A DNA stretch of 64,000 nucleotides from Alphaproteobacteria bacterium (GCA_022827685.1 JAJEIH010000047.1:16536-80535), one strand, 5' to 3'. Shown: positions 10,976-64,000, counted from the first letter of the stretch. The notes: generated by a model not told the origin, from the sequence alone. Program-made: numbers and translations.

Positions 10976-11866
10976 ATGGAGATTGCGGCAAGCGCGCCCG
11001 GCGTCGTGAAGGACGCCACCGACCAGACCTTCATGGCCGATGTCATCGAAGCCTCGATGACGGCGCCGGTGATCGTCGATTTCTGGGCGCCCTGGTGCGG
11101 CCCCTGCAAGCAATTGGGGCCGGTGCTCGAGAAGGTCGTGTCCAATGCCGGCGGCAAGGTCAGCCTCGTCAAGGTCGATATCGACAAGAGCCCGGTGGTC
11201 GCGCAGCAGATGCGCATCCAGTCGATCCCGGCCGTCTATGCCTTCGACCAGGGGCGCCCGGTCGATGCCTTCATGGGCGCGTTGCCGGAGAGCCAGGTCA
11301 AGGCGTTTGTCGAGCGGCTGGTGGGCGGGCCGGTCGAATCGGCCGTCGAGGCCGCTGTCGAGCAGGCCCGCGCGGCGCTGGAGGGCGGCGACGCGCAGAC
11401 CGCGGGCGCGATCCTCAACGAAGTGCTGAGGCAGGAGCCGGAGAACGCCGCCGCCATTGCCGGCCTTGCCCAGGTGTTTCTCGCCGTGGACGAGGTCACG
11501 CAAGCCCGCGCCATGCTGGACCGGCTGCCCGACGGCGCCGGCCAGGACCCGGCGGTGGCCGCGGCCGTCACCGCGGTGGAGCTCGCCGAGCAGAGCGCGG
11601 ATGCGGGCGACACGGCGGATCTGCGCGGCGCGGTGGAAGCCGACCCGGACGACCACCAGGCGCGCTTCGACCTGGCGATGGCGCTGTTCGGCGGCGGACG
11701 CCACAAGGAGGCGGCGGAGGAACTGCTGGAGCTCTACCGCCGCGACCGGGAATGGAATGACGGCGCGGCCCGCAGCCAGCTCGTCAAATTCTTCGAGGCG
11801 TGGGGGCCGATGCACGAACTCACGGTCGATATCCGCCGCCGCCTCTCGACCCTGATGTTCAGCTAG
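10976..11866 (+). CDS. Thioredoxin-domain protein with C-terminal TPR region (YbbN/CnoX-like co-chaperone)
   Basis: The protein from the ATG at 10976 (MEIAASAPGVVKDATDQTFMADVIEA...) carries the thioredoxin active-site motif WAPWCGPCK. The C-terminal half is helical and repeat-rich. Confidence 0.85.
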   Translation: MEIAASAPGVVKDATDQTFMADVIEASMTAPVIVDFWAPWCGPCKQLGPVLEKVVSNAGGKVSLVKVDIDKSPVVAQQMRIQSIPAVYAFDQGRPVDAFMGALPESQVKAFVERLVGGPVESAVEAAVEQARAALEGGDAQTAGAILNEVLRQEPENAAAIAGLAQVFLAVDEVTQARAMLDRLPDGAGQDPAVAAAVTAVELAEQSADAGDTADLRGAVEADPDDHQARFDLAMALFGGGRHKEAAEELLELYRRDREWNDGAARSQLVKFFEAWGPMHELTVDIRRRLSTLMFS

Positions 11867-11879
11867 GGAGCAGGCGGCC

Positions 11880-12533
11880 GTGGCCCTCAGGCGATCCCTG
11901 CCGGAGGTCATCCCGGTTTTCCCGCTGCCCGGCGTGCTGCTGCTGCCGCGCGCCATGCTGCCGCTGCATATCTTCGAGCCGCGCTACCGGGCGATGATTC
12001 GCGATGCGCTGGGCGATGAGGGAATCGTCGGCATGGTGCAGCCCTGCGCGGAAGGGACCGACCCGGCGAACCCGCCGATCTACGGGATCGGCTGCGCCGG
12101 CAAGATCCAGAACTCGGAAAAGCTCGACGACGGGCGCTACATGATCGCGCTGCAGGGCATCGCCCGCTTTCGCATAGACCGCGAGCTGGCGCGCCATCCC
12201 GACGGCTACCGCACCGTCCATGCGGATTTCGAGGGGTTTGGAGACGACCTCGACGCGCGCCGCAGCGGCCCGGTGGACCGCGACGGCCTGCTGGAGGCGC
12301 TCCGCGGCTTCCTGGCGCGGCGGGGGCTCAGCGCCGACTGGGACGCCGTGGGCAGCGCCGACGACGAAATGCTGGTCAACGCGCTCTCCATGGGCTGTCC
12401 CTTCGCGCCCAACGAGAAGCAGGCGCTGCTCGAATGCGGCGACACCGGCGAGCGCGCCCGGATGCTGGAAACGCTGTTTGCGATGTCGGGCTTCCAGGCG
12501 GCGAACGACGACGACCCGGCGCGGATGAATTGA
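11880..12533 (+). CDS. LON substrate-binding (Lon N-terminal) domain protein
   Basis: 217 aa with [29 protein letters not shown], typical of stand-alone LON N-domain proteins. It immediately follows the thioredoxin gene. Confidence 0.85.
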
Positions 12534-14190: not shown

Positions 14191-15806
<1,616 letters not shown>

Positions 15807-15882
15807 GGCCGGGCGGGCTTCCGCCGCCGGCGGGCCGGCGAGTGTGCTAAGGTTCGGCGACGCAGTCCCGGAGCGGAGGCTC

Positions 15883-16551
15883 ATGGAACGCAGCATCGGC
15901 AGCATGGGATCGGAATACACGCGCTTCCGCGTCGATCCGGAGGCTGTGCCGCTCCTGGCGAAGCTCGACTGGAACAGCATTGCGCGCCGGGTGTTCATCG
16001 ATCCCGCCGGCGGCCGCGTCGCGCTCATGACGCCGTCTTCGAAGCATGAACGCTACGCCTGGGGCACCGGCCGGCTGATGGATGCCGTGGACAGGGCCGG
16101 CATCCCCGTAGTCGCGCTCGGATCGACCCGCTGGCGCCGGCCCGAAGACCCGGAGAACACCGGGGCCGAACCCGACGCCTGCTACTATCTGGGCGAGACC
16201 GCCGAGCGCTGGGGGCGGGCTTACGAACGGGGCGAGCCGGAACTGGAAGCGTTCGAGTTGCACACGCCGCCGTCGCTCGTGATCGAGGTCGAGCGGAGTT
16301 TCGGCGACGGGGACAAGCCCGCCTTCTACCGCCGGCTGGGCGTGCCGGAAATGTGGCGGCTCGACATCTCGGGGAACACGCGCGAAGCGGCCATGCTGGA
16401 CCTCCAGGCTCCGGACGGCCCGGCGGAACTGGCGTCCTCGCTCGTGCTGCCCCCGGCGACCCCGTCCTTCGTGCTGACTGCGCTGGAACTGGCTGTCCGC
16501 CGCCGCCTCGGCGAACTCGACGCCCTGATCGGGGCGCAGAAAATCCACTGA
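15883..16551 (+). CDS. Uma2 (DUF820) family PD-(D/E)xK endonuclease-like protein, copy 1
   Basis: AEPDACYYLG and PSLVIEVERSFGDGDKPAFYRRLGVPEMWRLD fit the Uma2 signature. It is about 60% identical to a paralog at 42757-43434. The start could be 15883 or 15904. Confidence 0.7.
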   Translation: MERSIGSMGSEYTRFRVDPEAVPLLAKLDWNSIARRVFIDPAGGRVALMTPSSKHERYAWGTGRLMDAVDRAGIPVVALGSTRWRRPEDPENTGAEPDACYYLGETAERWGRAYERGEPELEAFELHTPPSLVIEVERSFGDGDKPAFYRRLGVPEMWRLDISGNTREAAMLDLQAPDGPAELASSLVLPPATPSFVLTALELAVRRRLGELDALIGAQKIH

Positions 16552-16582
16552 ACGAACCGAAGACGGAAGAGAGGGAAACCCG

Positions 16583-18235
16583 ATGAGTGAACTGACGGGT
16601 TCGGCGATCCTCGCCAAGGCGCTGCGCAGGCAGGGCTGCGACGAGATGTTTTTCCTGATGGGCGGCCCGATGCTGCTGGCGGAGACCGAATGCGCCAATG
16701 AAGGCATCCGCATGGTCGATGTGCGCCACGAGCAGGCCGCCGCGATGATGGCGCACGCCTATGCGCGGCTGCGCACCAAGCCGGCGGCCTGCATGGCGGC
16801 CTCCGGGCCGGGCGTCACCAACCTTGTCACCGGCCTCTGCAACGCGCTGGTCGATTGCACGCCGGTGGTCGCGGTCGGCGGCTGCTCGCCGGTCGCGCAG
16901 TTCGGCAAGGACGTCTTCCAGGAGATCGACCAGATGCGGATCATGGAGGGCTGCGTGAAGTGGTCCGCCCGCGTGTACGATCCGCGCCGCATCCCGGAAA
17001 TCGTCGATATCGCCTTCCAGCAGGCGATGGCCGGCAAGCCGGGGCCGGTCTATATCGATATGCCGGGCGACGTGCTCTACACCAAGGTGCCGGAAGAGGA
17101 GATCAATTGGACGACCTCCGGGCGCCCGCTGCTCAGGAGCCGCCCCGCCGGCCAGCAGGACCTGATCGAGGAGACGGCCGCGATCCTGGCCGCCTCCGAG
17201 CGCCCGGTGATGGTCTCCGGCTCCGGCATCCTCTGGTCGGAAGCCTCGGAGGCGATGCACCGCTTCGTCGATGCCTCCGGCATTCCCTTCTACACCACGC
17301 CGCAGGGCCGGGGCGTCGTGCCCGAGGACCATCCCTGGCACTACGCCACCATGCGCTCGACCGCCTTCCGCGAGGCCGACTGCATCCTGATCCTCGGCAC
17401 GCGCCTCAACTACATCGTCGGCCACGCCGCGCCGCCGCGCTTCAACGCCGATGCGCGCATCGTGCGGATCGACATCGACCAGACCGAGATCGCGCAGAGC
17501 CCGCGGCCCATCGACATCGGCATCGTGGCGGATGTGCGCACCGCGCTGGAGCAGCTGATGGAGGCCATAGACGGGCGCTTCGACGCCGACCGCTTCAAGG
17601 CCTGGCGCGACCGGCTGGCGGAGGGCGAGGCGGAGAAGCGCGCCCGGCCCGGCGGCAACGCCCTCTCGGACGACACGCCGATCCACCCGCTCCGGCTCTG
17701 CGAGGAGGTCAAGAATTTCATGGACCGGGACTCCATCCTCGTGGTGGACGGCCAGGAAATCCTGAACTACGGGCGCCAGTCCATGCCGACCTACGCGCCC
17801 GGCCACCGGCTGAACTCCGGCCCGTTCGGCACGATGGGCGTGGGCCTGCCCTACGCCATCGGCGCCAAGGTCGCCAAGCCGGACAAGCAGGTCATCTGCG
17901 TGCATGGCGACGGCTCGATGGGCATCAACGCGATGGAGCTCGAAGCCGCCCAGCGCCAGGGCATTCCGGTGCTGGTGGTCATCAGCTGCAACGGCGGCTG
18001 GACCGCGGATCCCAATCGCGAAAAGATCGGGCGCGACCTCGGCTATGTGCGCTTTGACAGGATCGCCGAGGCGCTCGGCTGCTATGGCGAGCAGGTCGAG
18101 GAGCCGGGCGGGATCCGCGCGGCGCTGGAGCGGGGCCAGGCGGAAGTGGACAAGGGCCGCGTCGCCGTCATCAATGTCGTGACCGACTACCGCGCCCGCG
18201 CCGGCACGGTCCAGTTCGCGCAATACTCCACCTGA
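16583..18235 (+). CDS. Thiamine pyrophosphate-dependent enzyme (acetolactate synthase large subunit-like)
   Basis: 550 aa with the three TPP-enzyme domains and the HGDGSMGINAMELEAA TPP-binding region. Confidence 0.85.
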   Translation: MSELTGSAILAKALRRQGCDEMFFLMGGPMLLAETECANEGIRMVDVRHEQAAAMMAHAYARLRTKPAACMAASGPGVTNLVTGLCNALVDCTPVVAVGGCSPVAQFGKDVFQEIDQMRIMEGCVKWSARVYDPRRIPEIVDIAFQQAMAGKPGPVYIDMPGDVLYTKVPEEEINWTTSGRPLLRSRPAGQQDLIEETAAILAASERPVMVSGSGILWSEASEAMHRFVDASGIPFYTTPQGRGVVPEDHPWHYATMRSTAFREADCILILGTRLNYIVGHAAPPRFNADARIVRIDIDQTEIAQSPRPIDIGIVADVRTALEQLMEAIDGRFDADRFKAWRDRLAEGEAEKRARPGGNALSDDTPIHPLRLCEEVKNFMDRDSILVVDGQEILNYGRQSMPTYAPGHRLNSGPFGTMGVGLPYAIGAKVAKPDKQVICVHGDGSMGINAMELEAAQRQGIPVLVVISCNGGWTADPNREKIGRDLGYVRFDRIAEALGCYGEQVEEPGGIRAALERGQAEVDKGRVAVINVVTDYRARAGTVQFAQYST

Positions 18236-21183: not shown

Positions 21184-22527
21184 ATGCTTCGCACGATCAC
21201 CGGCCTCGCGGCCCTCTTCGTCCTGGCGGCATCGCCCGCCCATGCGGCGGTGGAAGGCGAGATCGCCTTCGTCTTCAACACCTTCTCCTTCCTGGTGCAC
21301 GGCTTCCTGGTCATGCTGATGGCGGCCGGCTTCGCCATGCTCGAATCAGGCCTCGTGCGCACCAAGAACACGGCGGCGATCTGCCTGAAGAACATCGCGC
21401 TCTACTCCATCGCCGGCATCATGTTCTACATCGTCGGCTACGCCGTGATGTACACGGATGTTGACGGCGGCTGGATCGGCGCGTTCGACTTCCTCTACAA
21501 TCCGTCCGAGGCCGAACTCGCGCTCCTCAACGCGGAGGAAGCGACGACCGGGCAGGTCGCGGCAGTGGTCGAGGGCGGCTACTCGGTCATGTCCGACTGG
21601 TTCTTCCAGATGGTGTTCGTGGCGACGGCCGCCTCCATCGTCTCGGGCACGCTCGCCGAGCGCATCCGCGTCCTGCCCTTCCTGATCTTCACGGTGCTGC
21701 TGTCGGCGCTGATCTACCCGATCCAGGCCTCCTGGGTCTGGGGCGGCGGCTGGCTCGCCGGGATGGGATTCAGCGATTTCGCCGGCTCGACGCTGGTGCA
21801 TTCCACCGGCGGCTGGGCCGCGCTCGCAGGCGCCATCGTGCTCGGCGCGCGCAAGGGCAAATACGGGCCCGAAGGGAGCATCAACCCCATGCCGGGCGCG
21901 AACCTGCCGCTGGCCACGCTCGGCACCTTCATCCTCTGGTTCGGCTGGTTCGGCTTCAATGGCGGCTCGCAGCTGGCGCTCGGCTCCGCCCTCGACGCGG
22001 TGGCGATCTCCATCGTCTATGTGAACACGAACCTCGCCGCCGCGGCGGGCGTGATCGCGGCCATGGCGACGAGCTATGTGCTGTACCGCAAGATCGACCT
22101 GACGCTGGCGCTGAACGGCGCCATCGCCGGCCTCGTCTCGATCACCGCCGGCCCCGACCTCCAGAACCATGTGCTGGCGCTCGTCATCGGCGGCATCGGC
22201 GGTGTGCTGGTGGTGTATGCGGTGCCGCTCCTCGACCGGCTGAAGGTCGATGATGTGGTGGGCGCGATTTCGGCCCATCTCGTCGCCGGAATCTGGGGCA
22301 CGCTCGCGGTCGGTATCTTCGGCGGCGGCGACTTCGTCACCCAGCTCATCGGCGTACTCGCCATCGGCGTCTTCGTCTTTGTCGTCTCGCTTGCAGCGTG
22401 GTTCGTCCTGAAGCTCGCACTGGGCATCCGGGCCTCGGAGGAGGCGGAGGACGACGGCCTCGACAAGAGCGAACTCGGCATGGAAGCCTATCCCGAGTTC
22501 GGCCGGGGCTCCTCGCCGCTCTTCTGA
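21184..22527 (+). CDS. amtB: Ammonium transporter AmtB
   Basis: 447 aa Amt/MEP family with a signal peptide and conserved LVHSTGGWAALAGAIVLGAR and WFGWFGFNGGS motifs. Confidence 0.9.
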   Translation: MLRTITGLAALFVLAASPAHAAVEGEIAFVFNTFSFLVHGFLVMLMAAGFAMLESGLVRTKNTAAICLKNIALYSIAGIMFYIVGYAVMYTDVDGGWIGAFDFLYNPSEAELALLNAEEATTGQVAAVVEGGYSVMSDWFFQMVFVATAASIVSGTLAERIRVLPFLIFTVLLSALIYPIQASWVWGGGWLAGMGFSDFAGSTLVHSTGGWAALAGAIVLGARKGKYGPEGSINPMPGANLPLATLGTFILWFGWFGFNGGSQLALGSALDAVAISIVYVNTNLAAAAGVIAAMATSYVLYRKIDLTLALNGAIAGLVSITAGPDLQNHVLALVIGGIGGVLVVYAVPLLDRLKVDDVVGAISAHLVAGIWGTLAVGIFGGGDFVTQLIGVLAIGVFVFVVSLAAWFVLKLALGIRASEEAEDDGLDKSELGMEAYPEFGRGSSPLF

Positions 22528-22546
22528 CGGCGGACGCCTTCCCGCA

Positions 22547-22582
22547 ACCGGCGGGCGCGCGGCGATCCGGGCCGCGCGCCCG
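22547..22582 (+). terminator. Candidate intrinsic terminator after amtB
   Basis: A perfect inverted repeat gcgggcgcgcgg-cgatccggg-ccgcgcgcccgc is followed by a T-rich tract (cttgcgttccgcattccgtttc). Confidence 0.45.
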
Positions 22583-22659
22583 CCTTGCGTTCCGCATTCC
22601 GTTTCAGCCGAGGATTGCATGGTAAACTGGGCGGGTCGGAAAAGCCGGATGGTCGTGTC

Positions 22660-23427
22660 ATGCGCAATCGGGGTGATGTCGTCGGCTTTGTTCTATCCTG
22701 CTGGCTGGCGGTGGCGCTTGCCTTGCCGTTGGCGGGCGCCGCCAATGCGGGCTCCATGCAAGAGGCGCAGGCGGCCTATGCCGAGGGACGGTTCACCGAT
22801 GCGGCCCGGATTGCGGAAAGCCTCGGAACCTCCCGGGGCTTCGCGCTGGCGGCGCAGTCTCTGACGGTCCACGGCTACTTCATTGCCGCCAGGGGCGAGA
22901 AGGAAGGGCTGTTCGAGCGCGCCCTGGGGCTCGCGCAAAAGGCGGTCCGCAGCGATCCCGGCAATGCGGACGCGCATATGCAACTCGCGCGCGCCACCGG
23001 ACGGCTCGCGCAGGTCATCGGCTCCCTGGAGGCGGCGGACAGGGGATATGTGGAGAAGATTCGCGAGGCGACGGAAGACGCGCTTCGGCTCGATCCCGAC
23101 ATGGCCTCGGCCCATGTCAGTCTCGCCCGGTGGCACACGGGAGTGGTCGGCAAGGTGGGATCGTTCCTGGCGCGCCTGACCTACGGCGCCCGCGAAAATG
23201 AGGCAGTCGCCTCGCTGGAGCGGGCCATGGAGCTTGCGCCCGATGCGAAGGACGTGCCGCTGCAATACGCGCTCGGCCTGCTGGAGCTTGACGAGGACGA
23301 ACATCGCGAGAGGGCGCGAAGCCTGCTGGAGCAGTCCGTCGCGATACCGGCGAAGGACGCCTTCGAGCGCCTGCTGGACAAGCTGGCGAAAGACCGCCTC
23401 AAGGCCCTGGAGGCGCCCGGCGGCTGA
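22660..23427 (+). CDS. Hypothetical secreted alpha-helical (TPR-like) protein
   Basis: The ATG at 22660 gives MRNRGDVVGFVLSCWLAVALALPLAGAANA, a signal peptide. The rest is helical-repeat-like. I could not assign a family. Confidence 0.6.
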   Translation: MRNRGDVVGFVLSCWLAVALALPLAGAANAGSMQEAQAAYAEGRFTDAARIAESLGTSRGFALAAQSLTVHGYFIAARGEKEGLFERALGLAQKAVRSDPGNADAHMQLARATGRLAQVIGSLEAADRGYVEKIREATEDALRLDPDMASAHVSLARWHTGVVGKVGSFLARLTYGARENEAVASLERAMELAPDAKDVPLQYALGLLELDEDEHRERARSLLEQSVAIPAKDAFERLLDKLAKDRLKALEAPGG

Positions 23428-23818
23428 CGGCCCCGGCGGGCGGACAGGCCCGCGCGGGCTTGACGAAGACGGCCTCCATCCCCAATACTGAGGTTGGCAA
23501 TTATTGGAGTTGGCAGTTCAACGACGAGGGCAACCGCAATCTTCGGGGATATGTTGAATTGCGGCTCGGTGGCGGCTCCGGTTCCGCCTATCGCAACGAC
23601 AGCTTCCCCCGCATCCCGGCCGTTACCATGAAACGCAACTTTCAGGCCCGGCTTATGTCCTGCTCGGTCGTTTCACCCGGCCGCAGCCTCCTTTTCGCCG
23701 CAGCCGCGCCGGCGCCGGTTGTTCGCCTGTTCCCTGTCCGCCGTCCGCTTGCGAAGGCGTCGCGCTGCAACCGCGCCGGCGCTGCGCCGCGGAGCCAGCT
23801 GCAAGGAGGCCATGGTCG

Positions 23819-25846
23819 ATGACCGCTGCCGCCGAATGCACGAAAATCCAGCCCTTGAGTTTGCCCGACGAACTCATCCTGATGCTCCTCAACGACCAGA
23901 CCGGATACTTCCACCAGGTTCCCGGCTGGAGATTGCAATGCGCCGTCGCCGGCGCCGTGCTTGCGGAACTTTCGCTCCTGTCCCGCATCGACACGGACAT
24001 GGAGTCGCTGGTCCTGCTGGACCCGACGGAAACCGGCGACCCCGCACTGGACCCGCTACTGAAGGAAATTGCCGACGAACCCGACCAAAGGAACGCCCGT
24101 TACTGGGTTGAACGGTTTGCGGGACAGGCGGAGACGGTCATCGATTTGACGCTGGACCGCCTCGTGGACCAGGAGATTCTGGAACACCACGCCGGCGATT
24201 TCTGGACGCTGACTCCGGCTCACTGGCTTGCGCACCAGCGCAGCGATGCGGAAAAGAGCACCGCAAGCCAGTTCATCAGGACGCGCATCAGCGAGGCCAT
24301 TTTCACCGACATGATTCCCGATCCCAGGGACGTGATCGTCATTTGCCTCGTCAACACCTGCGACGTCTTTCGCTTCATGTTCGAACTCAACGAGCACGCG
24401 GAAGAGCGGATCGGGCTCATCTGCAGGATGGACCTGATCGGCCGCTCCATAGCCGAGGCGGTCGAACAGAACATTGCCAGCCCGACGGGCCGCCCCTCGG
24501 CTCTGTCCCGGCGCATACCGCGGGTTCCGCTGCATCGTCTGCTGTTGAATCCGCATGCGCGCACCGGCCATCTTCCGGCGCTCTTTGCAGACCTCGCGAA
24601 AGAGTATGGCCCAGTGTTCCAGATAAAGCTGCCGACGGCCAAACCCAAGACCTTCCTTGCCGGGGCGTCGGTCAACCGTTGGGTACACAAGAGCGGGCGG
24701 ATGCACCTGAGGGCGGGGGGGTATTTCGCCGACTTCGAGAACGTCTTCGGCGCATCGGGCGTCTTGCCTTCGCTGGACGGCGGCGACCACTTCCGGCTTC
24801 GCAAGGCCATGTCGCCGGCCTATTCGCGCGAACGGCTGGCCGGCCAGCTTGACCAGCTGTTCCGCCTTGTCCGCAAGTTCATGGCGACCTGGACGGTCGG
24901 GGAGACCTACCAGGCAAGGTCCCTGTGCCGAGCCATGGTCAACGAGCAGATTTCGTCTCTCCATGTCGGGGTCGATACGCAGGACCTGATCGACGATCTG
25001 GTCACTTACAAGGAGCGCGCGCTCAGCGTCCATATCATAAAGATCATGCCCGAATTCACGCTGAAGACCCCGGGCATGAGACGCCGGGCGAAAGCCATTG
25101 ACGAGATGCTGGAACGGGTCCGGCGCGTTCACACACCCGCCCAGCGCGCCGGTTGCCCGCGGAACCTAGCAGACGACGTGCTGGGCCTGAATGTGAGCGA
25201 CCCGCAATTGGTGCCGGAATCGAATCTGCGATTCGCCCTGACGGCGACAGGGCTGACCAGCGTGTATTTCGGCGATATGCTGAGCTTCGCGATTTACGCC
25301 ATGATTTCGCAGCCTGAGATCCACGAAAGAATCCGAAGCGAGGCGGACGCCCTGTTCGACAACGGCGATCCGGACGGCGAGGCCTTTACCCTGGCCGCCA
25401 CCGATGTCACTCACCGCTTCCTTCAGGAATGTCTGCGCATGTACCCGGTCATCGCGATGTCCGTGCGCGATGTGGTGAACTCCTGTGTGGTCGAGGGGCA
25501 CGAATTACCGGTCGGGTCCCGGGTCTATATCGCCCAGACGGCCTCGCACTATATGGACGACGTGTTTCCCGACCCGTTCTCGTTCGATATCGACCGCTAC
25601 CTGCCTCCGCAGAGCGCGCACCGCAGTTTCGGATTTGCGCCGTACGGACTGGGCACGCATACCTGTCTCGGCATCCGGCAGGCGCTTCTGCAAATGACGG
25701 TCAACATGATGATGATCGCGCATTACTTCACGATATCGGCGTCTCCATCCGACTATGAGCTTCGGTTCAACCCGATTCCGTCGATGAAGCCGACGAAGAA
25801 GCTGAAATTCCACATCGCCGGGCAGAGGCGCGAATTGCCTGCCTGA
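23819..25846 (+). CDS. Fusion protein: N-terminal GPP34/GOLPH3-like domain (about aa 1-225) plus C-terminal cytochrome P450 (about aa 232-675)
   Basis: The N-terminus (LSLPDELILMLLNDQTGYF...LQCAVAGAVLAELSLLSRID...IPDPRDVIVICLVNTCDV) fits the GPP34 family. The C-terminus has P450 hallmarks: EYGPVFQI, ExxR (ECLRMYPV), PDPFSFDIDRY and the heme loop YGLGTHTCLG. It is a single uninterrupted frame. GC is about 59%, against about 67% for the surroundings. Confidence 0.8.
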   Translation: MTAAAECTKIQPLSLPDELILMLLNDQTGYFHQVPGWRLQCAVAGAVLAELSLLSRIDTDMESLVLLDPTETGDPALDPLLKEIADEPDQRNARYWVERFAGQAETVIDLTLDRLVDQEILEHHAGDFWTLTPAHWLAHQRSDAEKSTASQFIRTRISEAIFTDMIPDPRDVIVICLVNTCDVFRFMFELNEHAEERIGLICRMDLIGRSIAEAVEQNIASPTGRPSALSRRIPRVPLHRLLLNPHARTGHLPALFADLAKEYGPVFQIKLPTAKPKTFLAGASVNRWVHKSGRMHLRAGGYFADFENVFGASGVLPSLDGGDHFRLRKAMSPAYSRERLAGQLDQLFRLVRKFMATWTVGETYQARSLCRAMVNEQISSLHVGVDTQDLIDDLVTYKERALSVHIIKIMPEFTLKTPGMRRRAKAIDEMLERVRRVHTPAQRAGCPRNLADDVLGLNVSDPQLVPESNLRFALTATGLTSVYFGDMLSFAIYAMISQPEIHERIRSEADALFDNGDPDGEAFTLAATDVTHRFLQECLRMYPVIAMSVRDVVNSCVVEGHELPVGSRVYIAQTASHYMDDVFPDPFSFDIDRYLPPQSAHRSFGFAPYGLGTHTCLGIRQALLQMTVNMMMIAHYFTISASPSDYELRFNPIPSMKPTKKLKFHIAGQRRELPA

Positions 25847-25868
25847 CAGGCCCGGGCCGGCCCGCGCG

Positions 25869-26663
25869 CTACCGCGCGCGTTTCAGCGCCGTGCGGGTGA
25901 AGTCGCCGAGGTCGAGATCGGTCCCGAACTCGTAGCCCGACCAGTCCAGCACGGTGCTTTTTCCCGTGAGGTGGTTGGTCATCGTCACCTTGCTGCTTCG
26001 CCAGAAGCGGTCGAGATATTTGTTGTAGCCTTCCACGACCATCGTCTTGAGATGCGCATCCCTGCGGTCGAAGAACTGAATCTGCATTGTGCGCAGCTCC
26101 TCCCGGTCCATCCAGACCAGCTGGCGCGAGTATCCCGAGTCCGGGCCGACGGGGATACGTTCGGAGACAGTGCATTCGAGGTCGCCGCAAGGCTCGCTGC
26201 GCAGAAGCCGGTGGGTGAATTTCTCGACCTCGGGGGTGCCCAGGTCCTCGTAGGAGAACTCGCTGCCCATGAAGGAGCCCGACTGGTTGGAGGAGCTGAT
26301 GCGCTTGACCCGTTTCAGAGCGGGGAGATAGAGCCACTGGTCATCGGCCTCCTCCTTGTGGGCGTGGACGAGAAACGCCGTTCCCCTGACATCGCGCGGC
26401 CGGTCGAACACGAACAGCGTCCGGTCGCCGTCATTCTCCACCTCGATGACCTTCAGGCGGACTTCGCGCTTGCTCTCCTGGCCCCGCTTGTTGCGCAGCG
26501 TCATCGTCATGCCCGCAACGAAATTGCCGAACCCCTTCTGCCGTTCGCGGGCTTCCGTCGCGAGCTTAAGCCCCTGCTCCTCGGGGCTGTCGGCGGCGCG
26601 GCCGGCGGACGGCGCAACCGACCAGGCGAACGCGGCAAGCATGGCTATGGACAAGGCAAGCAT
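25869..26663 (-). CDS. LolA-like outer-membrane lipoprotein-sorting family protein (periplasmic partner of an RND/MMPL exporter)
   Basis: A signal peptide (MLALSIAMLAAFAWSVAPSAGRA) is followed by a beta-rich domain typical of the LolA-like family. It lies directly downstream of, and co-oriented with, the RND gene. Confidence 0.75.
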   Translation of the reverse strand: MLALSIAMLAAFAWSVAPSAGRAADSPEEQGLKLATEARERQKGFGNFVAGMTMTLRNKRGQESKREVRLKVIEVENDGDRTLFVFDRPRDVRGTAFLVHAHKEEADDQWLYLPALKRVKRISSSNQSGSFMGSEFSYEDLGTPEVEKFTHRLLRSEPCGDLECTVSERIPVGPDSGYSRQLVWMDREELRTMQIQFFDRRDAHLKTMVVEGYNKYLDRFWRSSKVTMTNHLTGKSTVLDWSGYEFGTDLDLGDFTRTALKRAR

Positions 26664-26759
26664 CGGATGGGGGAGAGAGACGCGAATCACCGTTTCCTCC
26701 TGTCGGCACGGCTGCCGGAAACTCTTTGCAGAAGATAGCACAATGCCCGCCGCGCGCGC

Positions 26760-29084
26760 CTATCCAGCCTCACGCCGCAACCGTTCCCTGATCTGCTCGC
26801 TCGTTTCCTTCGTCCCGTCGAGCACCATCAGCAGGGGCGGGAGGAACAGGAGGTCCGCCAGGAGGGCGATGATGACCGTCATGCCCGCCAGCAGGCCGAG
26901 CGCCTGGTTGGTCACCATGCCCGATGCGCCGAACACCATGAAGCCGAGGCCGAACACAACCGTCGTCGCCAGCAGCGCCTTGCCCACGGAGCGGAAGGCG
27001 GACTGCACGGATTCCGACGGCAGCAGCCCGTTCTTCCTGGCGGCTACATATTTGGTCATGAAGTGGATCGTGTCGTCCACGATGATGCCGAACGCGATCG
27101 CGGTAACCACCGAGGCCGCAATGCCGACCTCGCCCACCAGATAGCCCCAGAGGCCCATCGCCATGGCGGCCGGGACGAAATTGGGAATCAGGCTGATGAC
27201 GCCGAGCCGCACGCTCCTGAAGACGAGCAGCAGCAGCAGGGAGACGATGGCCATGGCGATGAAGGTGCCGAGCAGCATGCCCTCTATGTTTCTCTGGGTG
27301 GACCGGGCGCCGACGAGCGAGACCCCGGTGGCGCCGGTTTCCATGCCGGGAGCGTTCTGCCCGAGCCATGCCTGCGCGCGTTCGTCGAGCGCGAGCTTCT
27401 CGTCGCTGGAAAGGCTGCGCAGCACGACCGTCATGCGCGTGGACGACCGCCCGACATCGATGAGATTGTTGAGGTCGCGGCCGACGGGCAGCGAAAATTC
27501 GTAGAGCAGCAGATATTGCGCGGCGAGGTCGGAGTCGTTGGGAAGGATGTGGAACGCCGGGTCGTCGCCATGCAGGTTCCTGTTGAGCCGCTTCATGATG
27601 TCGGTGATGGCGAAGACATGCGCGGTTTCCGGTTGTGCCCGGTACCATTCGACGAACGCGTCCACCCGCTTCAGATAGTCGATATCCGTTATGCCGCCCT
27701 CGCGCCCGGCGCTCAGCGAATACTCATAGGTTTCCACACCGGTGAAATTCTCGCTGATGAAGTCCGTGGACCGGCGGAACTCGTAGCTCTCGTCGAGAAG
27801 CTCCAGCCAGTTCTCCTTGAGTTCGATCCGCGAGATGCCGGCGACGAGCACGACGACCAGGACGCCGAACCCGCCGAGCAGAACCGTGCGGCGGGAAACG
27901 ACGAACCGGCCCAAGCGGTCGAAAAGGTCGGATTCGCCTGCGCCTGCAGCACGGACGCGCAGGGGCATCGCCGACAGGACCACGGGCAGGAGCGTCACCG
28001 CATAGACGAACGCGCACAAGCTGCCGAACGCCACCATGTTGCCCATGACCCGGAAGGGCGGCATATCCGCGAAATTCAGGCTGAGGAATCCGATTGCCGT
28101 CGTGAGCGATGTCAGGAAGACCGGCCACAGATTGACCCGCAGCGACTGGATCACCGCCTGCCGCCGGTCCAGACCCCGGCGCAGGCCCGCCGCCACGCCC
28201 TCGAACATATGCACCGAATGCGCAACGGTGACCGCCATCAGCACGAACAGCGCCGCGCCGCTCTCGCCGAAGAACTTCATGCCGGTCCAGCCGATGAAGC
28301 CCATCGAGGAAGCCAGGACGGCAGCCAGCATGATGACGATGGCGAGCGTGCCCCACAGCGAGCGCAGCAGAATGACGGCGACGAGCAGCATCGTGCCGAG
28401 CGCCGCCGGCGCGAGGATGCCCATATCCTCGTCGATCGCATCGCGCATGGCGCGGTTGAGGACGAGCTCGCCGGTGAGGTGGTAGTCGATGGCCGCATGC
28501 TCTTCCCGGGATTCGACGGCCGTGGCGCGGAGGAAATCCGTCACCTCCGCCTTGGCCGATTGCCGGTCCGTGTCGGGAAGCGCGACGCTGACCACCAGGC
28601 CGGCGACGCGACCGTTGCGGGAGACGAAACGCCCGGCGATTTCCTCGGTGCCGAGCGCGATTTCTTCGATTCGCCCCAGGTCATCGTCGCTCAGCGACGC
28701 GGCGTCGCCGATGAGCGGCTCGACGATCAGCTCGTCCTCAAGGCCTTCGCTGTGCTGGTAGTTGGTTATCGAATCGACGCGGGTGACGTAGGGCGTCTGC
28801 CAGAGCCGGTCGGTCAGATCCTCGATGGCGGCAAGCGCCTCGCGCGTGAAGATCGTGCCCTCCCGCGGCGCGGCCACGACGAGCGCGGCGTCGGACAGGG
28901 CATAGGTTTCCTCCAGCCGGTCGAGCGCGACGATATGCGGGTCGTCATGGCCGAAATGGTTCCGGACATCGACATCGACCTCAACGACACGCGCCGCGCC
29001 TGCCGCCAGGACCAGCACGACCAGCAGGCTGACCAGAACGGTCAGCCATCGCCGGGCCATGACGAGCGCTATGCAGGCGTCCAT
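26760..29084 (-). CDS. RND-superfamily exporter, MMPL/HpnN-like (COG1033)
   Basis: About 774 aa with two 6-TM bundles, each followed by a large periplasmic loop. It carries conserved RND motifs (GIIVDDTIHFM; AFGSLCAFVYAVTLLPVVL). The start could be 29084 (MDAC...) or 29060 (MARRW...). The remainder of the 1229-aa ORF is antisense and rejected. Confidence 0.85.
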   Translation of the reverse strand: MDACIALVMARRWLTVLVSLLVVLVLAAGAARVVEVDVDVRNHFGHDDPHIVALDRLEETYALSDAALVVAAPREGTIFTREALAAIEDLTDRLWQTPYVTRVDSITNYQHSEGLEDELIVEPLIGDAASLSDDDLGRIEEIALGTEEIAGRFVSRNGRVAGLVVSVALPDTDRQSAKAEVTDFLRATAVESREEHAAIDYHLTGELVLNRAMRDAIDEDMGILAPAALGTMLLVAVILLRSLWGTLAIVIMLAAVLASSMGFIGWTGMKFFGESGAALFVLMAVTVAHSVHMFEGVAAGLRRGLDRRQAVIQSLRVNLWPVFLTSLTTAIGFLSLNFADMPPFRVMGNMVAFGSLCAFVYAVTLLPVVLSAMPLRVRAAGAGESDLFDRLGRFVVSRRTVLLGGFGVLVVVLVAGISRIELKENWLELLDESYEFRRSTDFISENFTGVETYEYSLSAGREGGITDIDYLKRVDAFVEWYRAQPETAHVFAITDIMKRLNRNLHGDDPAFHILPNDSDLAAQYLLLYEFSLPVGRDLNNLIDVGRSSTRMTVVLRSLSSDEKLALDERAQAWLGQNAPGMETGATGVSLVGARSTQRNIEGMLLGTFIAMAIVSLLLLLVFRSVRLGVISLIPNFVPAAMAMGLWGYLVGEVGIAASVVTAIAFGIIVDDTIHFMTKYVAARKNGLLPSESVQSAFRSVGKALLATTVVFGLGFMVFGASGMVTNQALGLLAGMTVIIALLADLLFLPPLLMVLDGTKETSEQIRERLRREAG

Positions 29085-29318
29085 GGTCAACGCCGCGGAC
29101 CGTCGAACCGGAAAACGGGAGAGGGAAGGACGCCCGCCGCGCAAGTAAACGGGCGGGCAAATCGGGCGAGGGAATCGGGTGCCGATTGCATGTCCGGCAT
29201 ATTGTCCCAGCCTCCGTCTCCATTGTCCATCCGCCTCCCGGAGCCGGCGACAATCCGGGTTCAAACCGGCAGGACTATGCTCTACCTTCGGGCGACTGTG
29301 CTTGGGGAAGCTGCGCAC

Positions 29319-30839
29319 ATGCCGGGTGGAAATGTCCTTCTGGAGGCGCGCGGCATCGTCAAGAGCTTTGGTGGCCTGGCCGCGAACGACCGCATTGACC
29401 TCACCGTGCATGCGGGCGAGATTCATGCGCTGCTCGGCGAGAACGGTGCCGGCAAATCGACTCTCGTAAAAATCCTTTACGGTTCGCTCCAGCCGGATGC
29501 GGGCTCCGTAAGCTGGGAAGGCCGCCCGGCGGCGGTCGGCAATCCCGCCGAGGCGCGCGCGCTCGGCATCGGCATGGTCTTCCAGCATTTCTCGCTCTTC
29601 GAAGGCCTGACCGTCGCCGAGAACATCGCGCTCGCGCTGCCGCCCGATGAGGCCGGAAGCGGGCTCGCCGCCAATGTGCGGTCCGTCTCGGAATCCTACG
29701 GCCTGCCGCTCGATCCGGCGGCGCGGGTGGCCAGCCTGCCGGTGGGCGTGCGCCAGCGCATCGAGATCGTCCGCTGCCTGCTGCAGCGCCCGCGCCTGCT
29801 CATCATGGACGAGCCGACCTCGGTGCTGACGCCGCAGGAGGCCGAACGGCTGTTCGAGACCCTGCGCCGGCTCGCCGGCGAGGGTTGCGCGGTGCTCTAT
29901 ATCAGTCACCGGCTGGAGGAAGTCCGCCAGCTCTGCCACTCCGCAACCGTGCTGCGGCATGGACGGGTAGTCGGCCGGCCGGACCCGAAAACGGCGAGCA
30001 TGGCGGACCTCGCCCGGCTGATGGTGGGCGCCGATGTCGAAGGCGCCGGCAGCCGCGAAGGCGAACCCGCCGCGGCCGGTCCCGTCCGTCTCGCCGTCCG
30101 CGGCCTCTCGCTGGAGGCCGACACCCCCTTCGGCGTCTCGCTGGAGGACATTTCGCTCGAAGTCCGCGGCGGCGAGATCGTGGGCGTGGCGGGCGTCGCC
30201 GGAAACGGCCAGGACGAGTTGTTCGCCGCGCTCTCCGGGGAGACGCCCGCCTTCGACGACGACGCCGTCGAAATCGACGGCCGGGCCTGCGGGCGGATGG
30301 GACCGCGGTGGCGCAGGCGCCTGGGCGCGGCCTTCATCCCGGAGGAGCGGCTGGGCCATGCCGCCGTGCCGGCCATGCGGCTTTCGGAGAATGCCGTTCT
30401 CACGCGGCACGGCACCGACCCGGAGCTGGCGACGGGCGGCCTCCTGCACCTCTCACAGGCGCGCGGCCTCGCGCGGCGCATCGTGGAGCGCTTCGATGTG
30501 CGCGCGCCGGAGGGCGACCCGGAGGCCGGGGCGCTTTCGGGAGGCAACCTGCAGAAATTCGTCGTGGGCCGCGAACTCGACCGCAGGCCGGGCGTGCTGG
30601 CGGTGAGCCAGCCGACCTGGGGCGTCGATATCGGCGCGGCGACCGAGATCCGCCGCGAACTGGCCGCGCTGGCGCGGGACGGGGCCGCCGTTCTCGCGAT
30701 CAGCCAGGACTTGGACGAAATTCTCGAGATCTCCGACCGCATTGCCGTGATCTCGCGGGGCCGGCTCTCCCCGGCGGTCCCAACCGGAGATACGTCCAGG
30801 GAGGCCATCGGCCTGCTCATGGGCGGCGCGGGGGACTGA
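29319..30839 (+). CDS. ABC transporter ATP-binding protein with duplicated ATPase domains (BMP/nucleoside-type uptake system)
   Basis: Two Walker A sites (GENGAGKST; GVAGNGQDELF-type) and two signature motifs (LPVGVRQRIEIV; LSGGNLQKFVVG). Confidence 0.85.
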   Translation: MPGGNVLLEARGIVKSFGGLAANDRIDLTVHAGEIHALLGENGAGKSTLVKILYGSLQPDAGSVSWEGRPAAVGNPAEARALGIGMVFQHFSLFEGLTVAENIALALPPDEAGSGLAANVRSVSESYGLPLDPAARVASLPVGVRQRIEIVRCLLQRPRLLIMDEPTSVLTPQEAERLFETLRRLAGEGCAVLYISHRLEEVRQLCHSATVLRHGRVVGRPDPKTASMADLARLMVGADVEGAGSREGEPAAAGPVRLAVRGLSLEADTPFGVSLEDISLEVRGGEIVGVAGVAGNGQDELFAALSGETPAFDDDAVEIDGRACGRMGPRWRRRLGAAFIPEERLGHAAVPAMRLSENAVLTRHGTDPELATGGLLHLSQARGLARRIVERFDVRAPEGDPEAGALSGGNLQKFVVGRELDRRPGVLAVSQPTWGVDIGAATEIRRELAALARDGAAVLAISQDLDEILEISDRIAVISRGRLSPAVPTGDTSREAIGLLMGGAGD

Positions 30840-35991: not shown

Positions 35992-36146
35992 ATCCGCTTT
36001 TTCGGGTTCACACGCGCGGGAATCTCGATTATAGGCGACTGTGGCTCGGTGCGGTATCCCCGATCCTGTGAAGAAGTCCGGAGTGCCGATCGGAAAGGTC
36101 GGGGAGGCCGTCGCCCGAACAACAATAAGGAAGGGGAGAGAGACGC

Positions 36147-36410
36147 ATGGCGGAAGTTAGTGCCGAAACCCGGCAAGCGCATTGGAGGAAAACCTCCACC
36201 CTAACCTACGTGATCCTGGCGTTGTGGTTCCTGTTCGGATACGTGGTGCCATGGTTCGCCAAGGAGCTTGATGCGGCGTCCTTCCTCGGATTCCCGCTTG
36301 GCTACTACTTCATCGTGCAGGGCTCGCTGATCATTTTCGTGCTGCTGATCGTTGTCCAGAACATCTTCCAGGACAACATCGACGAAGAGCACGGGGTGGC
36401 CGAGGAATAA
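36147..36410 (+). CDS. DUF4212 small membrane protein (putative SSS-transporter accessory subunit)
   Basis: 87 aa with two TM segments and the typical GFPLGYYF motif. It lies immediately upstream of a sodium:solute symporter. Confidence 0.8.
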   Translation: MAEVSAETRQAHWRKTSTLTYVILALWFLFGYVVPWFAKELDAASFLGFPLGYYFIVQGSLIIFVLLIVVQNIFQDNIDEEHGVAEE

Positions 36411-36422
36411 GGGGAGCGGCTC

Positions 36423-38240
36423 ATGAACACACAAGCGCAAGGCACGAGGTTCGTTGACAGGCTGGGCAGGGTGTACGGCCTGTACACGCTGGGCTTCCTC
36501 GCCTTCTTCGCCCTCATGGCCATTATCGAGCAGTTCGGCGTCGGCGCCAGGACCATCGGCGTGCTGTTCCTGCTCTTCACCCTCGCGATCTACGCCACCA
36601 TCGGCTGGCTGTCGCGCACCATGCAGGTGGATGCCTATTACGTTGCGGGCCGGGAGGTCCCGTCTCTCTACAACGGCATGGCGACGGCTGCGGACTGGAT
36701 GTCCGGCGCGTCTTTCGTGGCGCTTGCCGGCGGCATCTATTTCGGCGGCTATCCCTATCTGGGCTTCGTCATCGGCTGGACCGGCGGCTATGTGCTGGTC
36801 AATGCGTTGATGGCGCCCTATCTGCGCAAGTTCGGCTGCTACACGGTGCCCGACTTCATCGGCACCCGCTACGGCGGCAATCTCGCGCGGTTCTGCGCGG
36901 TCTTCGTCCTGGTGATTGCGTCCTTCACCTATGTGACGGCGCAGATCAACGCTACCGGCACGATCGCGGCCCGCGCGCTCTCCATCCCGTTCGAGATCGG
37001 CGTGTGGTTCGGCCTGCTGGGCATCCTGCTCTGCTCCATGCTGGGCGGCATGCGCGGCGTGACCTGGACGCAGGTGGCGCAGTACATCGTGCTCATCATC
37101 GCCTATCTGGTGCCGCTGATCTGGATGTCGAACGAACAGGGCTTCGGCATTATCCCGCACTTCGGCTATGGCGAGGCCGCGCAGCGGATCGCCGAACTCG
37201 AGGCGGAATACGGACTGCAGCCGGCGGCCGAGGCCGTGGCGGGGCTGAAAGTGCTGACAACGGCGCATTTCGATCCGCAAACCTCGCTCGACAGCTGGAA
37301 GTTCGTCACGCTCGCCCTCGCCATGATGGCCGGCACGGCGTCGCTGCCGCACATCCTGATGCGGTATTTCACGACGCCGTCGGTGCGCCAGGCGCGCAAG
37401 TCGGTCGGCTGGTCGCTGTTTTTCATCTTCCTGCTGTATTTCTCGGCGCCGGCGCTCGCCACGCTGACGAAGCTGCAGCTGCTGGACCCGGGCCTCGCAA
37501 CCGCGGTGGTCGGCAAGGCGGTGGAAGATGTGATGGCGCTGGAGTGGGTGAAGAACTGGTCGGCCGTGGGCATGCTGTCGGTCGTGGACCAGAGCGGCGA
37601 CGGCATCGTGCAGCTCAACGAGTTCTTCATGCGGCCCGACATCGTCGTGCTGGCCACGCCCGAGATCGCGGGCCTGCCCTATGTGATCTCCGGCCTGGTC
37701 GCGGCGGGCGGCATGGCGGCGGCCATGTCCACCGCCGACGGGCTGCTGCTGGCGATCGCCAATGCGCTCAGCCACGATCTCTACTACAAGATCATCGACC
37801 CGCAGGCCGATACGCGCCGCCGCCTGATCGTGGCCCGCGTGCTGCTGGTCGGTATCGGCGCGCTGGCCGCCGCCGTGGCTTCGCTGAAGCTCACCGGCAT
37901 CCTGGGCGCGGTGGCATGGGCGTTCTGCTTCGCCGGCTCGGGGCTGTTCTTCCCGCTGGTGCTCGGCATCTGGTGGAAGAGGGCCAACCGGCAGGGCGCT
38001 ATCGCCGGCATGATCGCCGGCTTCGTGGCAGGCTCCATCTATCTGTGGTGGACCTATACCAGCGGCGAAACCTGGTTCAGCCTCGACCATCTGCGGTTCA
38101 GCATCATCGGCATGCCGGTCTCGCTGGTGGCGATGGTGGTCGTGTCGCTGATGACGCCGGAGCCAGATGCGGAAACGCAGGCCATGGTGGACGAAACCCG
38201 TATCCCGACGGGCGATTCCATTCTGGCCGAGACGCATTGA
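36423..38240 (+). CDS. Sodium:solute symporter family transporter (cation/acetate symporter-like)
   Basis: 605 aa with about 13-14 TM segments and SSS-family motifs. Confidence 0.85.
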   Translation: MNTQAQGTRFVDRLGRVYGLYTLGFLAFFALMAIIEQFGVGARTIGVLFLLFTLAIYATIGWLSRTMQVDAYYVAGREVPSLYNGMATAADWMSGASFVALAGGIYFGGYPYLGFVIGWTGGYVLVNALMAPYLRKFGCYTVPDFIGTRYGGNLARFCAVFVLVIASFTYVTAQINATGTIAARALSIPFEIGVWFGLLGILLCSMLGGMRGVTWTQVAQYIVLIIAYLVPLIWMSNEQGFGIIPHFGYGEAAQRIAELEAEYGLQPAAEAVAGLKVLTTAHFDPQTSLDSWKFVTLALAMMAGTASLPHILMRYFTTPSVRQARKSVGWSLFFIFLLYFSAPALATLTKLQLLDPGLATAVVGKAVEDVMALEWVKNWSAVGMLSVVDQSGDGIVQLNEFFMRPDIVVLATPEIAGLPYVISGLVAAGGMAAAMSTADGLLLAIANALSHDLYYKIIDPQADTRRRLIVARVLLVGIGALAAAVASLKLTGILGAVAWAFCFAGSGLFFPLVLGIWWKRANRQGAIAGMIAGFVAGSIYLWWTYTSGETWFSLDHLRFSIIGMPVSLVAMVVVSLMTPEPDAETQAMVDETRIPTGDSILAETH

Positions 38241-52026: not shown

Positions 52027-52283
52027 TGGATTACTGGCTCGTTTGCACCGGGCAGCGGTCGGAAACCCTTGACGACGGAAGTCGGGAATACATAATTTCC
52101 GCTGTCCGGGGCATGTTCCAACCGCCAAGGGGATAAGCGGGCGGGCAGCCTGTGTCAAGGCATGCACCAGCAGGAGAAAATTTCTATTTCAACACGTTAC
52201 GCCGTGTATGCGGCGTTTTGTCGTGAACCTGTCAGAACTCGCGGCGGGGCACTCGTCGCGACCTGGAAGAGCGGGAGACTTCC

Positions 52284-52739: not shown

Positions 52740-52759
52740 CGGCGGGCCCGGCACACCGG

Positions 52760-59562: not shown

Positions 59563-59624
59563 GGTCTGGAAAAATCCGCCGGGCGGCGCGACTATCGGGC
59601 GGACCCGGAGACGAACGGAAGGCG

Positions 59625-62885: not shown

Positions 62886-63055
62886 AATTCAGGGGCTTCG
62901 CCTCCGGCCGGATCGGGTGGAAGAGGCGTAATTTCGGATAATCCTCTCTGCCGACGACGCCAGGAGCAAGGCGGGCGCTTGCATTTGCCAGCCGTCTTCC
63001 GATTTTATATATTGGAAGTTCAAATGTTTCTGGTGTGTCAATAATAGGTCAAGAC

Positions 63056-63943: not shown

Positions 63944-64000
63944 CGCCGCTGCCAGTGCAAGGCGCCGCTTGAGATTTCCCGGTTGAGCGGGCTGTTCCCG

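Follow-up and report, generated by a model that had tools for sequence, protein, structure and literature searches.

We have analysed a 64,000-nucleotide stretch of DNA from an alphaproteobacterium (GCA_022827685.1, JAJEIH010000047.1:16536-80535; hereafter the window), which carries an accessory, horizontally mobile block at positions 23514-29252. This block of about 5.7 kb contains the genes of a fusion between a GPP34 domain and a cytochrome P450, a LolA-like periplasmic protein and an MMPL-type transporter of the RND superfamily, with no further gene inside. It is a reduced copy of a larger mobile cassette found in about 10 phyla. On balance, we lean slightly towards the reading that it is a mobile module for oxidising and trafficking a sterol-like lipid in bacteria of marine-invertebrate (mostly sponge) microbiomes, and the carriers of the cassette, judged from their gene sequences, probably alter and move such lipids. 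An earlier note on this DNA had named the products of these genes, and every one of its domain calls was confirmed by Pfam.

The mobility of the block is evident from its deviant GC content, from a copy in another genomic context in the locus L004, and from the fusion being as similar between phyla as within Alphaproteobacteria. The block has a GC content of 63.9% against 68.0% for the whole window, and is the lowest-GC stretch of 5.7 kb in the window (mean 68.4%, standard deviation 1.3; next non-overlapping minimum 65.2%). By gene, the GC content is 61.4% for the fusion, 63.6% for the LolA-like gene and 65.4% for the MMPL gene, and the GC at third codon positions is 0.79, 0.85 and 0.87, respectively, with 0.86-0.93 for the flanking genes. 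The GC dip reported in the earlier note is thus real but milder than the 59-62% given there. The island had also been drawn as 22585-29100 with the gene of a TPR protein included. These limits no longer hold, since the TPR gene has a GC content normal for the window (68.4%) and lies outside the block shared with L004.

L004, which comes from another alphaproteobacterial metagenome-assembled genome (MAG), aligns to the window at 23514-29252 only, with 88-90% DNA identity and unrelated flanks. The surroundings of its copy contain a resolvase fragment, two tyrosine integrase genes, an insertion sequence (IS) transposase gene and a 49-codon remnant of amtB. As L004 shares the block alone, and among mobility genes, the block is separable from its core context, which bears out the earlier proposal of an accessory block. 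The arrangement in L004 arose either through a move of the block that took along a small piece of the old flank, or through the breaking up of the old locus by mobile elements. The amtB remnant is 90% identical to the amtB of the window; the remnant and the mobility genes lie at 6299-6445, 7554-8381, 15750-17963 and 19566-21380 of L004, and a run of GCGCCGT heptamer repeats lies directly upstream of the block at about 9600-9700.

As for the presence or absence of the block in relatives, on the one hand, L004 has it in another context. On the other hand, L003, a species-level relative that is collinear with window positions 14119-35815 at about 90% identity, carries it at the same site, and no empty site was found among relatives. 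The genes of the island are identical in a contig of the MAG GCA_022821465.1, whose accession series and sample name agree with those of a MAG study of the sponge Ircinia (PMC9531527). A metagenome scan with the TPR protein for the empty site returned no relatives; its homologues represented one full cassette (L083) and two unrelated contexts (L084/L085), with no empty amtB-ABC junction. Direct and inverted repeats at the borders of the window site were merely short, low-identity matches at chance level, and no mobility genes lie between amtB and the ABC operon of the window. The three intact genes of the block are under purifying selection, with dN/dS values against L003 and L004 of 0.14-0.22 overall (0.21 for the fusion, 0.18-0.20 for the LolA-like gene and 0.14-0.20 for the pump gene).

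A scan with one genome per species gave at least 542 matching stretches, and our census covered the best 80 loci at species level. All open reading frames (ORFs) within 8 kb of the fusion were clustered, and the recurrent clusters were identified with Pfam and mapped back; the counts given here are raw frequencies in the 80 loci. The loci come from Alpha- and Gammaproteobacteria, Latescibacterota, Nitrospirota, Chloroflexota, Gemmatimonadota, Binatia, Verrucomicrobiota, Thermodesulfobacteriota, Bdellovibrionota and Rhodothermaceae. The mean identity of the fusion is 70.9% between phyla or groups (range 60.9-92.3%) and 70.5% within Alphaproteobacteria, and for about a quarter of the fusion sequences, the nearest neighbour comes from another phylum or class. 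The fusion of the window is 61-92% identical over about 675 residues to family members from about 10 phyla.

Next to the fusion, the census recovered a Rieske oxygenase with a KshA_C domain (55 of the 80 loci), a methyltransferase with a Sterol_MT_C domain (48/80) and an FAD oxidoreductase of the amine-oxidase type (34/80), and at least one of these enzymes is present in 67 loci. An RND transporter gene is likewise present in 67 loci, mostly within 3 kb of the fusion, and 57 loci have both an enzyme partner and an RND transporter. Accordingly, the association of P450 and transporter proposed in the earlier note is well founded, with the LolA-like gene and the MMPL type of the window together beside the fusion in 14 of the 80 loci. 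Contrary to what had been suggested, the module is not self-contained, considering that the larger cassette elsewhere usually adds the sterol methyltransferase homologue, the KshA-like Rieske protein and the FAD oxidoreductase.

The type of RND transporter tracks the host lineage. The MMPL type of the window occurs in 17 loci, which are 10 of 14 Alphaproteobacteria, all five Gammaproteobacteria, one member of the Bacteriovoracales and one of the Nitrospirales; the LolA-like gene accompanies it in 14 of the 17. As 'Candidatus Poriferihabitaceae' belongs by taxonomy to the Arenicellales (Gammaproteobacteria), this type is essentially proteobacterial. A second MMPL type was found in 28 loci, which are 27 of 29 Chloroflexota and one unclassified MAG. 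AcrB with a membrane-fusion protein was found in 23 loci, among them all 11 Latescibacterota and all six Gemmatimonadota, and also Binatia, Opitutia and Thermodesulfobacteriota. In two loci (L023 and L037), the AcrB-type pump gene and the true fusion are separated by a second P450-like ORF, directly upstream of the fusion, with which it shares only 28-29% identity.

The full proteobacterial version of the cassette is seen in L083, with the gene order TPR, FAD oxidoreductase, Rieske, fusion, methyltransferase, LolA-like and MMPL; identity to the proteins of the window is 73% for the TPR protein and 79% for the LolA-like protein of this locus. The window and its close relatives L003-L006 have retained the fusion and the transport genes alone. 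In this clade, the fusion is 65.9% identical to those of other cassettes (L016-L088) and the transporters about 75%, which suggests that the P450 changed faster after the loss of its enzyme partners. Among the other cassettes, the identities of the fusion, LolA-like and MMPL proteins are all about 73%.

The enzyme partners point to sterol-type chemistry. The best Protein Data Bank (PDB) matches of the cassette Rieske protein are 3-ketosteroid 9-alpha-hydroxylases (E 8e-23 to 6e-20), well above other Rieske oxygenases. This KshA-like protein is unlike the VanA_C-type, sdmA-like Rieske protein of sterol C-4 demethylation, and the latter is also present in L020 and L030. In 7 of the 80 loci, from several phyla, a fusion of squalene epoxidase and oxidosqualene cyclase is encoded no more than 8 kb from the P450 fusion. 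In L020 (Nitrospira bin75), the order is fusion, methyltransferase, methyltransferase, epoxidase-cyclase, CYP51-like, ERG24 and Rieske. In L030, the order is isocitrate dehydrogenase, fusion, methyltransferase, KshA-like Rieske, outer-membrane barrel and FAD oxidoreductase, followed by a second methyltransferase, sdmB-like, sdmA-like and ERG24. Two cassettes carry further steroid-related genes: L088 adds a KshB-type reductase, and L089 adds 3-beta-HSD and steroid 5-alpha-reductase-family genes. Accordingly, the earlier guess of a lipid or isoprenoid substrate was sound, and the evidence from the cassettes narrows it to sterol-like lipids.

The contig of L030 (JAAXIB010000027.1, 70,077 bp) agrees in size and gene order with the scaffold named 'Nitrospira sp., coral reef 1 and 2' in PMC10070321, and its gene order fits the gene numbers 2682229270 to 2682229279 of that study. 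For '1 of 2' methyltransferase of this 'Nitrospira sp., coral reef' scaffold, a desmosterol product was obtained in vitro (PMC10070321). Judged by size and gene order rather than by sequence, the fusion of L030 very probably adjoins an enzyme of proven sterol side-chain chemistry; the supplement of PMC10070321 contains no protein sequences, and the tested methyltransferases were equated with those of the cassettes by size and gene order alone. The isolate name of L030 is Plut_88904, and PMC10070321 calls the matching scaffold 'coral reef'. Because of this label, the fusion family may not be strictly limited to sponge symbionts.

The bacterial sterol clusters described before (PMC9531527, PMC10070321) share with the cassette the kind of host and the pattern of horizontal spread, and in L020 and L030 the fusion lies directly beside such a cluster, with methyltransferases, the squalene epoxidase-cyclase, CYP51, ERG24 and sdmA/B-like genes. 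Neither the fusion nor the transporters appear in either study, and the same is true of the KshA-like Rieske protein and the FAD oxidoreductase. The window differs from these clusters in lacking all biosynthesis genes, with no match to oxidosqualene cyclase, CYP51 or ERG24 in its 64 kb, so it holds no de novo sterol cluster.

More than 2000 homologues of the fusion were found, almost all of them about 675 residues long, and the ExxR and Cys-ligand motifs are invariant in the alignment of the family. In hydropathy profiles, the N-terminus of the fusion showed no signal peptide and no transmembrane (TM) segment. The best PDB match of the family profile is CYP51 of Methylococcus capsulatus (E 7e-23, residues 250-649), making CYP51 the closest solved structure to the P450 domain. 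However, the P450 shares only 23% identity with the CYP51-like protein of L020, and the His-Thr-Ser of the CYP51 I-helix is replaced by a conserved Gly-Asp-Ala-Leu-Ser; the fusion also differs from CYP51 in its N-terminal GPP34 domain. Members of one P450 family share about 40% identity or more. By this sequence measure, the P450 of the fusion falls outside CYP51 and represents a distinct P450 family. The GPP34 domain, which we propose from its sequence to be a membrane- or lipid-binding module, matches human GOLPH3 (3kn1) weakly (E 0.017). An AlphaFold2 model of the fusion from a 26-sequence alignment had a mean predicted local distance difference test (pLDDT) score of 52.9, too poor for a fold search, and was not used.

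By architecture and length, the fusion of the window belongs to GPP34_L, a family already described by others (PMC11706023, Microbiome 2025). Accordingly, the statement of the earlier note that no characterised system of this composition could be named needs amending, as the fusion itself has been reported, with another proposed role. GPP34_L was described as a family of sponge symbionts with a single origin, expressed in situ and restricted to sponge symbionts (PMC11706023). The flanking genes were analysed there for the short GPP34-only form alone, and sterols and MMPL were not mentioned. Further GPP34 fusions, with a Rieske domain and with an ABC ATPase, are reported from sponge symbionts (PMC11706023); these suit a role of GPP34 in bringing enzymes to the membrane better than one as a host-directed effector.

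The LolA-like protein matches the LolA_like family with 196 bits (cut-off 30, E 5e-58), and its PDB matches are 3bk5 (E 8e-77), 4z48 (E 7e-30) and 3buu (E 5e-8). Its N-terminus has a signal-like hydrophobic segment without Cys, and hence no lipobox. The LolA-like gene follows the MMPL gene on the same strand after a gap of 69 nt, and co-transcription of the two is plausible as judged by this spacing; the fusion gene, on the other strand, converges with the pair. The MMPL pump also has a Pfam match to the sterol-sensing domain. A crude hydropathy profile gave two TM bundles and two large loops, which fits an RND protein. Its best NCBIfam model is HAE3 (TIGR00921) with 153.8 bits, below the cut-off of 351.9. 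The scores were far below the family cut-offs for HpnN (TIGR03480, 103.9 bits against 751.85; NF052374, 40.1 against 1100) and for BstA (NF045600, 25.6 bits against 1400), indicating only partial matches. In the PDB, the pump is distant from MmpL5 and HpnN (E about 1e-6; HpnN E 9e-6 over one TM bundle).

The transport pair is a module of its own that is often but not always joined to the fusion. We examined the context of six close homologues of the LolA-like protein (74-80% identity), and just one of them, in L088, lies near an intact fusion, within a full cassette. L091 contains a 97-residue GPP34 fragment (11609-11902) and a 132-residue MMPL fragment (8016-8414), and L089 (8602-12678) contains fragments of the methyltransferase and the FAD oxidoreductase. 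L086 has a trio of pump, barrel and LolA-like genes adjoining another Rieske protein and a ferredoxin, without the fusion; L087 is limited by the contig end, and L090 has an orphan LolA-like gene. The cassette is thus frequently gained, shuffled and eroded. A stop codon lies within the fusion of L052.

Some loci with the transporter type of the window add an outer-membrane beta-barrel, which is either an OMP_b-brl protein or a member of a family of about 420-455 residues without a Pfam match. The latter protein has a signal peptide and a C-terminal aromatic residue, and its gene lies between the LolA-like and MMPL genes in L017 (13200-14549), L016, L019, L034, L057, L086-L088 and L091. We regard it as a probable outer-membrane beta-barrel partner of this type of transporter that had not been described before. 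A search of the window found none of the barrel genes of the cassettes.

In the mechanism that we propose, the GPP34-P450 fusion would be cytoplasmic, with its lipid-binding GPP34 domain anchoring it to the inner face of the cell membrane, and the P450 would oxidise a sterol or a closely sterol-like polycyclic lipid dissolved in the inner leaflet. The MMPL/HAE3-type RND pump, driven by the proton-motive force, and the soluble periplasmic LolA-like carrier would move the lipid between the inner membrane and the periplasm, the outer membrane or the exterior. In most other genomes, the same P450 would act beside the sterol 24-C-methyltransferase homologue, the KshA-like Rieske protein and the FAD oxidoreductase, and the lineage of the window would have kept the P450 and the transport pair. 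The oxidation and transport envisaged in the earlier note are retained here; its export step becomes one of two possible directions. By analogy, the direction is probably outward; alternatively, a host sterol could be delivered inward to the enzyme.

The outward direction is favoured because of the analogy with several transport systems. HpnN (hopanoid) and BstA/B/C (sterol) likewise use an RND inner-membrane protein and bring a polycyclic isoprenoid lipid to the outer membrane, and BstA serves as an analogue of outward transport. In the Bst system, the RND protein works with a periplasmic binding protein, like the pair of the window, but the folds of BstB and BstC differ from the LolA-like fold of the periplasmic partner in the window. 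AmeABCD of Castellaniella defragrans (PMC6394551) joins an HAE3-type RND pump and a LolA-superfamily periplasmic protein, as in the window, within a genomic island for the metabolism of monoterpenes, which are isoprenoids, and its role in export is supported by deletion data. AmeABCD consists of a DUF1302 outer-membrane protein, a 451-residue DUF1329 protein, a COG4447 protein and the pump. In place of these four parts, the window has the 273-residue PF17131 protein and the pump alone, and AmeABCD has another substrate and no P450. ApeL/ApeM/ApeN (PMC8253772) resemble the window in pairing a LolA-like chaperone with an RND transporter; the two are encoded within a cluster for lipid biosynthesis and have been proposed, but not proven, to deliver the product to the outer membrane. 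Unlike the window, the Ape system has an extra LolB-like protein and an acyl-lipid cargo.

Several observations weigh against a sterol-like lipid as the substrate of this module. The methyltransferase, Rieske, FAD oxidoreductase and cyclase genes are absent from the entire window, so it is orthology with other genomes that supports the sterol link, and the distance of the P450 from CYP51 in identity and I-helix motif has been described above. Considering how far the fusion of this clade has diverged from those of other cassettes, a changed specificity is possible. With more than 8000 matches, the LolA-like family is very large, its close structural match 3bk5 is annotated merely as a 'putative outer membrane lipoprotein-sorting protein', and the LolA-like/MMPL pair also occurs without the fusion. 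Matches of RND/MMPL proteins to 'sterol-sensing' models are generic across the superfamily. Also, the comparison loci are all MAGs with taxa taken from record titles, and some labels or bin assignments may be wrong.

Four other explanations have to be weighed. General detoxification, in which the P450 oxidises toxic hydrophobic metabolites of the host or its neighbours, such as terpenoids or halogenated compounds, and the pump with its periplasmic partner expels them, seems rather unlikely to us. A P450 with an RND pump is a classic pairing, AcrB with a membrane-fusion protein (23 loci) is of the classic multidrug-efflux class, AmeABCD gives tolerance to monoterpenes, and horizontal spread in a chemically rich host would suit a resistance trait. 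However, the sterol-type C-methyltransferase and the KshA-like oxygenase are tailoring enzymes, the cassette adjoins sterol synthesis clusters in seven loci, and the identity of 61-92% of the P450 across phyla suggests one defined substrate, not a broad specificity. We think it less likely still that phagocytosed symbionts secrete their GPP34 proteins, the P450 fusion among them, to act as effectors, which is the proposal of PMC11706023. In that case, the fusion would bind phosphatidylinositol-4-phosphate (PI4P) of the host and block phagosome maturation, and the adjoining transporter genes would be unrelated. The restriction to sponge symbionts and the expression in situ reported for the family agree with such a role, as do the homology of GPP34 to the eukaryotic PI4P-binding GOLPH3 and the secreted TPR protein, of a typical eukaryote-like class, beside the fusion. 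On the other side, the fusion has neither a signal peptide nor a TM segment, and a haem enzyme dependent on cytoplasmic electron donors would be an odd secreted protein. This role also leaves unexplained the linkage to RND transporters (67/80) and to enzymes (67/80) and the position at the edges of sterol clusters. In the HMMER alignment, GOLPH3 W81 and R90, which we take to be PI4P-binding residues, face P35 and A44 of the fusion; the alignment is weak, and this is suggestive at most.

The uptake and catabolism of steroids would make host sterols an imported carbon source, with the P450 and, elsewhere, the KshA/KshB-like enzymes beginning their degradation. We give this a slim chance. Genes of the KshA-like oxygenase and the KshB-type reductase do occur in related cassettes, and sponges have been reported to be sites of bacterial steroid degradation (PMC5790920). 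However, no genes for side-chain beta-oxidation, KstD or ring cleavage (Hsa) are found among the recurrent neighbour clusters, and a methyltransferase adds carbon and does not remove it. RND pumps are not among the known sterol importers; the mycobacterial importer of cholesterol is Mce4. A chance adjacency of three unrelated accessory genes that travel together would agree with the LolA-like/MMPL pair being found without the fusion in some genomes, and with the convergence of the fusion and transporter genes, which do not form one operon. We find this hardly credible, as the same trio occurs in 14 of 80 species-level loci from Alpha- and Gammaproteobacteria, and other lineages swap the transporter for another RND type with no loss.

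Compared with the trafficking of a sterol-like lipid by the module, we hold a wider proposal more tentatively. The fusion could be the membrane-tethered oxidase, and not a host-directed effector, of a holobiont-specific, horizontally shared toolkit for sterol tailoring and trafficking, made up of the P450, a sterol C-24 methyltransferase, the KshA-like oxygenase, the FAD oxidoreductase and an envelope-matched RND transporter. This is possible, but we would not yet call it probable. If it is true, the toolkit would enable bacteria of about ten phyla to modify sterols, either taken from the host or made by themselves, and may contribute to the side-chain-alkylated, oxidised sterols of sponges that are used as animal biomarkers. 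This bears on the question whether the unusual sponge sterols, including the precursors of the 24-isopropyl biomarker, are made by the animal or by bacteria.

The fusion family (2025), the bacterial sterol clusters in sponge microbiomes (2022, 2023) and the concept of lipid export by RND and LolA-like proteins have been published. The literature searched contained no paper tying GPP34 proteins to sterols or to RND or LolA-like transporters. What is new is the genomic context of the fusion and its linkage to RND transporters and sterol-type enzymes in 80 species-level genomes. One mobile cassette ties together bacterial sterol methyltransferases of functional type, a conserved P450 and dedicated envelope transporters, and supplies concrete enzymes and carriers for expression and testing. 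One enzyme core is combined with three types of RND transporter according to the cell envelope of the recipient. This offers a metabolic alternative to the published idea that symbiont GPP34 proteins manipulate the phagosomes of the host.

Features of the mobile block and its upstream neighbours, in positions of the window
Feature	Position	Strand	Basis
amtB	21184-22527		Pfam
TPR / RMD1-3-like protein with signal peptide; neighbour, outside the mobile block	22660-23427	+	Pfam TPR
Mobile block: upstream region, GPP34-P450 fusion, LolA-like, MMPL with its upstream region	23514-29252		alignment to L004, GC
Shine-Dalgarno-like AAGGAGG, 9 nt before the fusion ATG	23803-23809	+	read directly; kept in L003, L004, L005
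GPP34-cytochrome P450 fusion, 675 aa, 'GPP34_L' family	23819-25846	+	Pfam, one ORF
GPP34 domain, aa 15-216	23861-24466	+	Pfam PF05719, 111.9 bits, E 5e-32; above gathering cut-off
P450 domain, aa 246-662	24554-25804	+	Pfam PF00067, 113.5 bits, E 1e-32; above gathering cut-off
LolA-like periplasmic protein, 273 aa, GTG start (longer ORF to 26741)	25869-26690	-	Pfam PF17131
RND-superfamily transporter, MMPL/HAE3 type, 774 aa	26760-29084	-	Pfam MMPL x2, E 7e-38

The TPR protein has a signal-like N-terminus and belongs to a small family, with 135 matches at E <= 1e-10, of which the few named ones are from uncultured MAGs of several phyla. In four or five loci, among them L083 (1251-2072, 73% identity), L075, L015 and L029, its gene borders the cassette; it is found without the cassette in L084/L085 and is missing from the L004 block. 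The protein may be a loosely associated accessory or a separate symbiosis factor.

In the upstream region of the fusion, a small gene at 23460-23822 overlapping the fusion ATG was considered and ruled out, as it has no conserved frame and contains a gap of about 137 columns in L003. An Rfam scan of 22400-29500 gave no match at E <= 0.1, and scans for promoters and terminators gave counts equal to the expectation from shuffled sequence, which are uninformative. Other 1-kb bins with 61-62% GC were found in the window at 36001-37000, 52001-53000, 59001-60000 and 63001-64000. About 55 nt upstream of the fusion, at 23514-23570 (CAGTTCAACGACGAGGGCAACCGCAATCTTCGGGGATATGTTGAATTGCGG), are kept in the window, L003 and L004, and the remaining spacer has the gap of about 137 alignment columns in L003. 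This conserved element may be a regulatory site.

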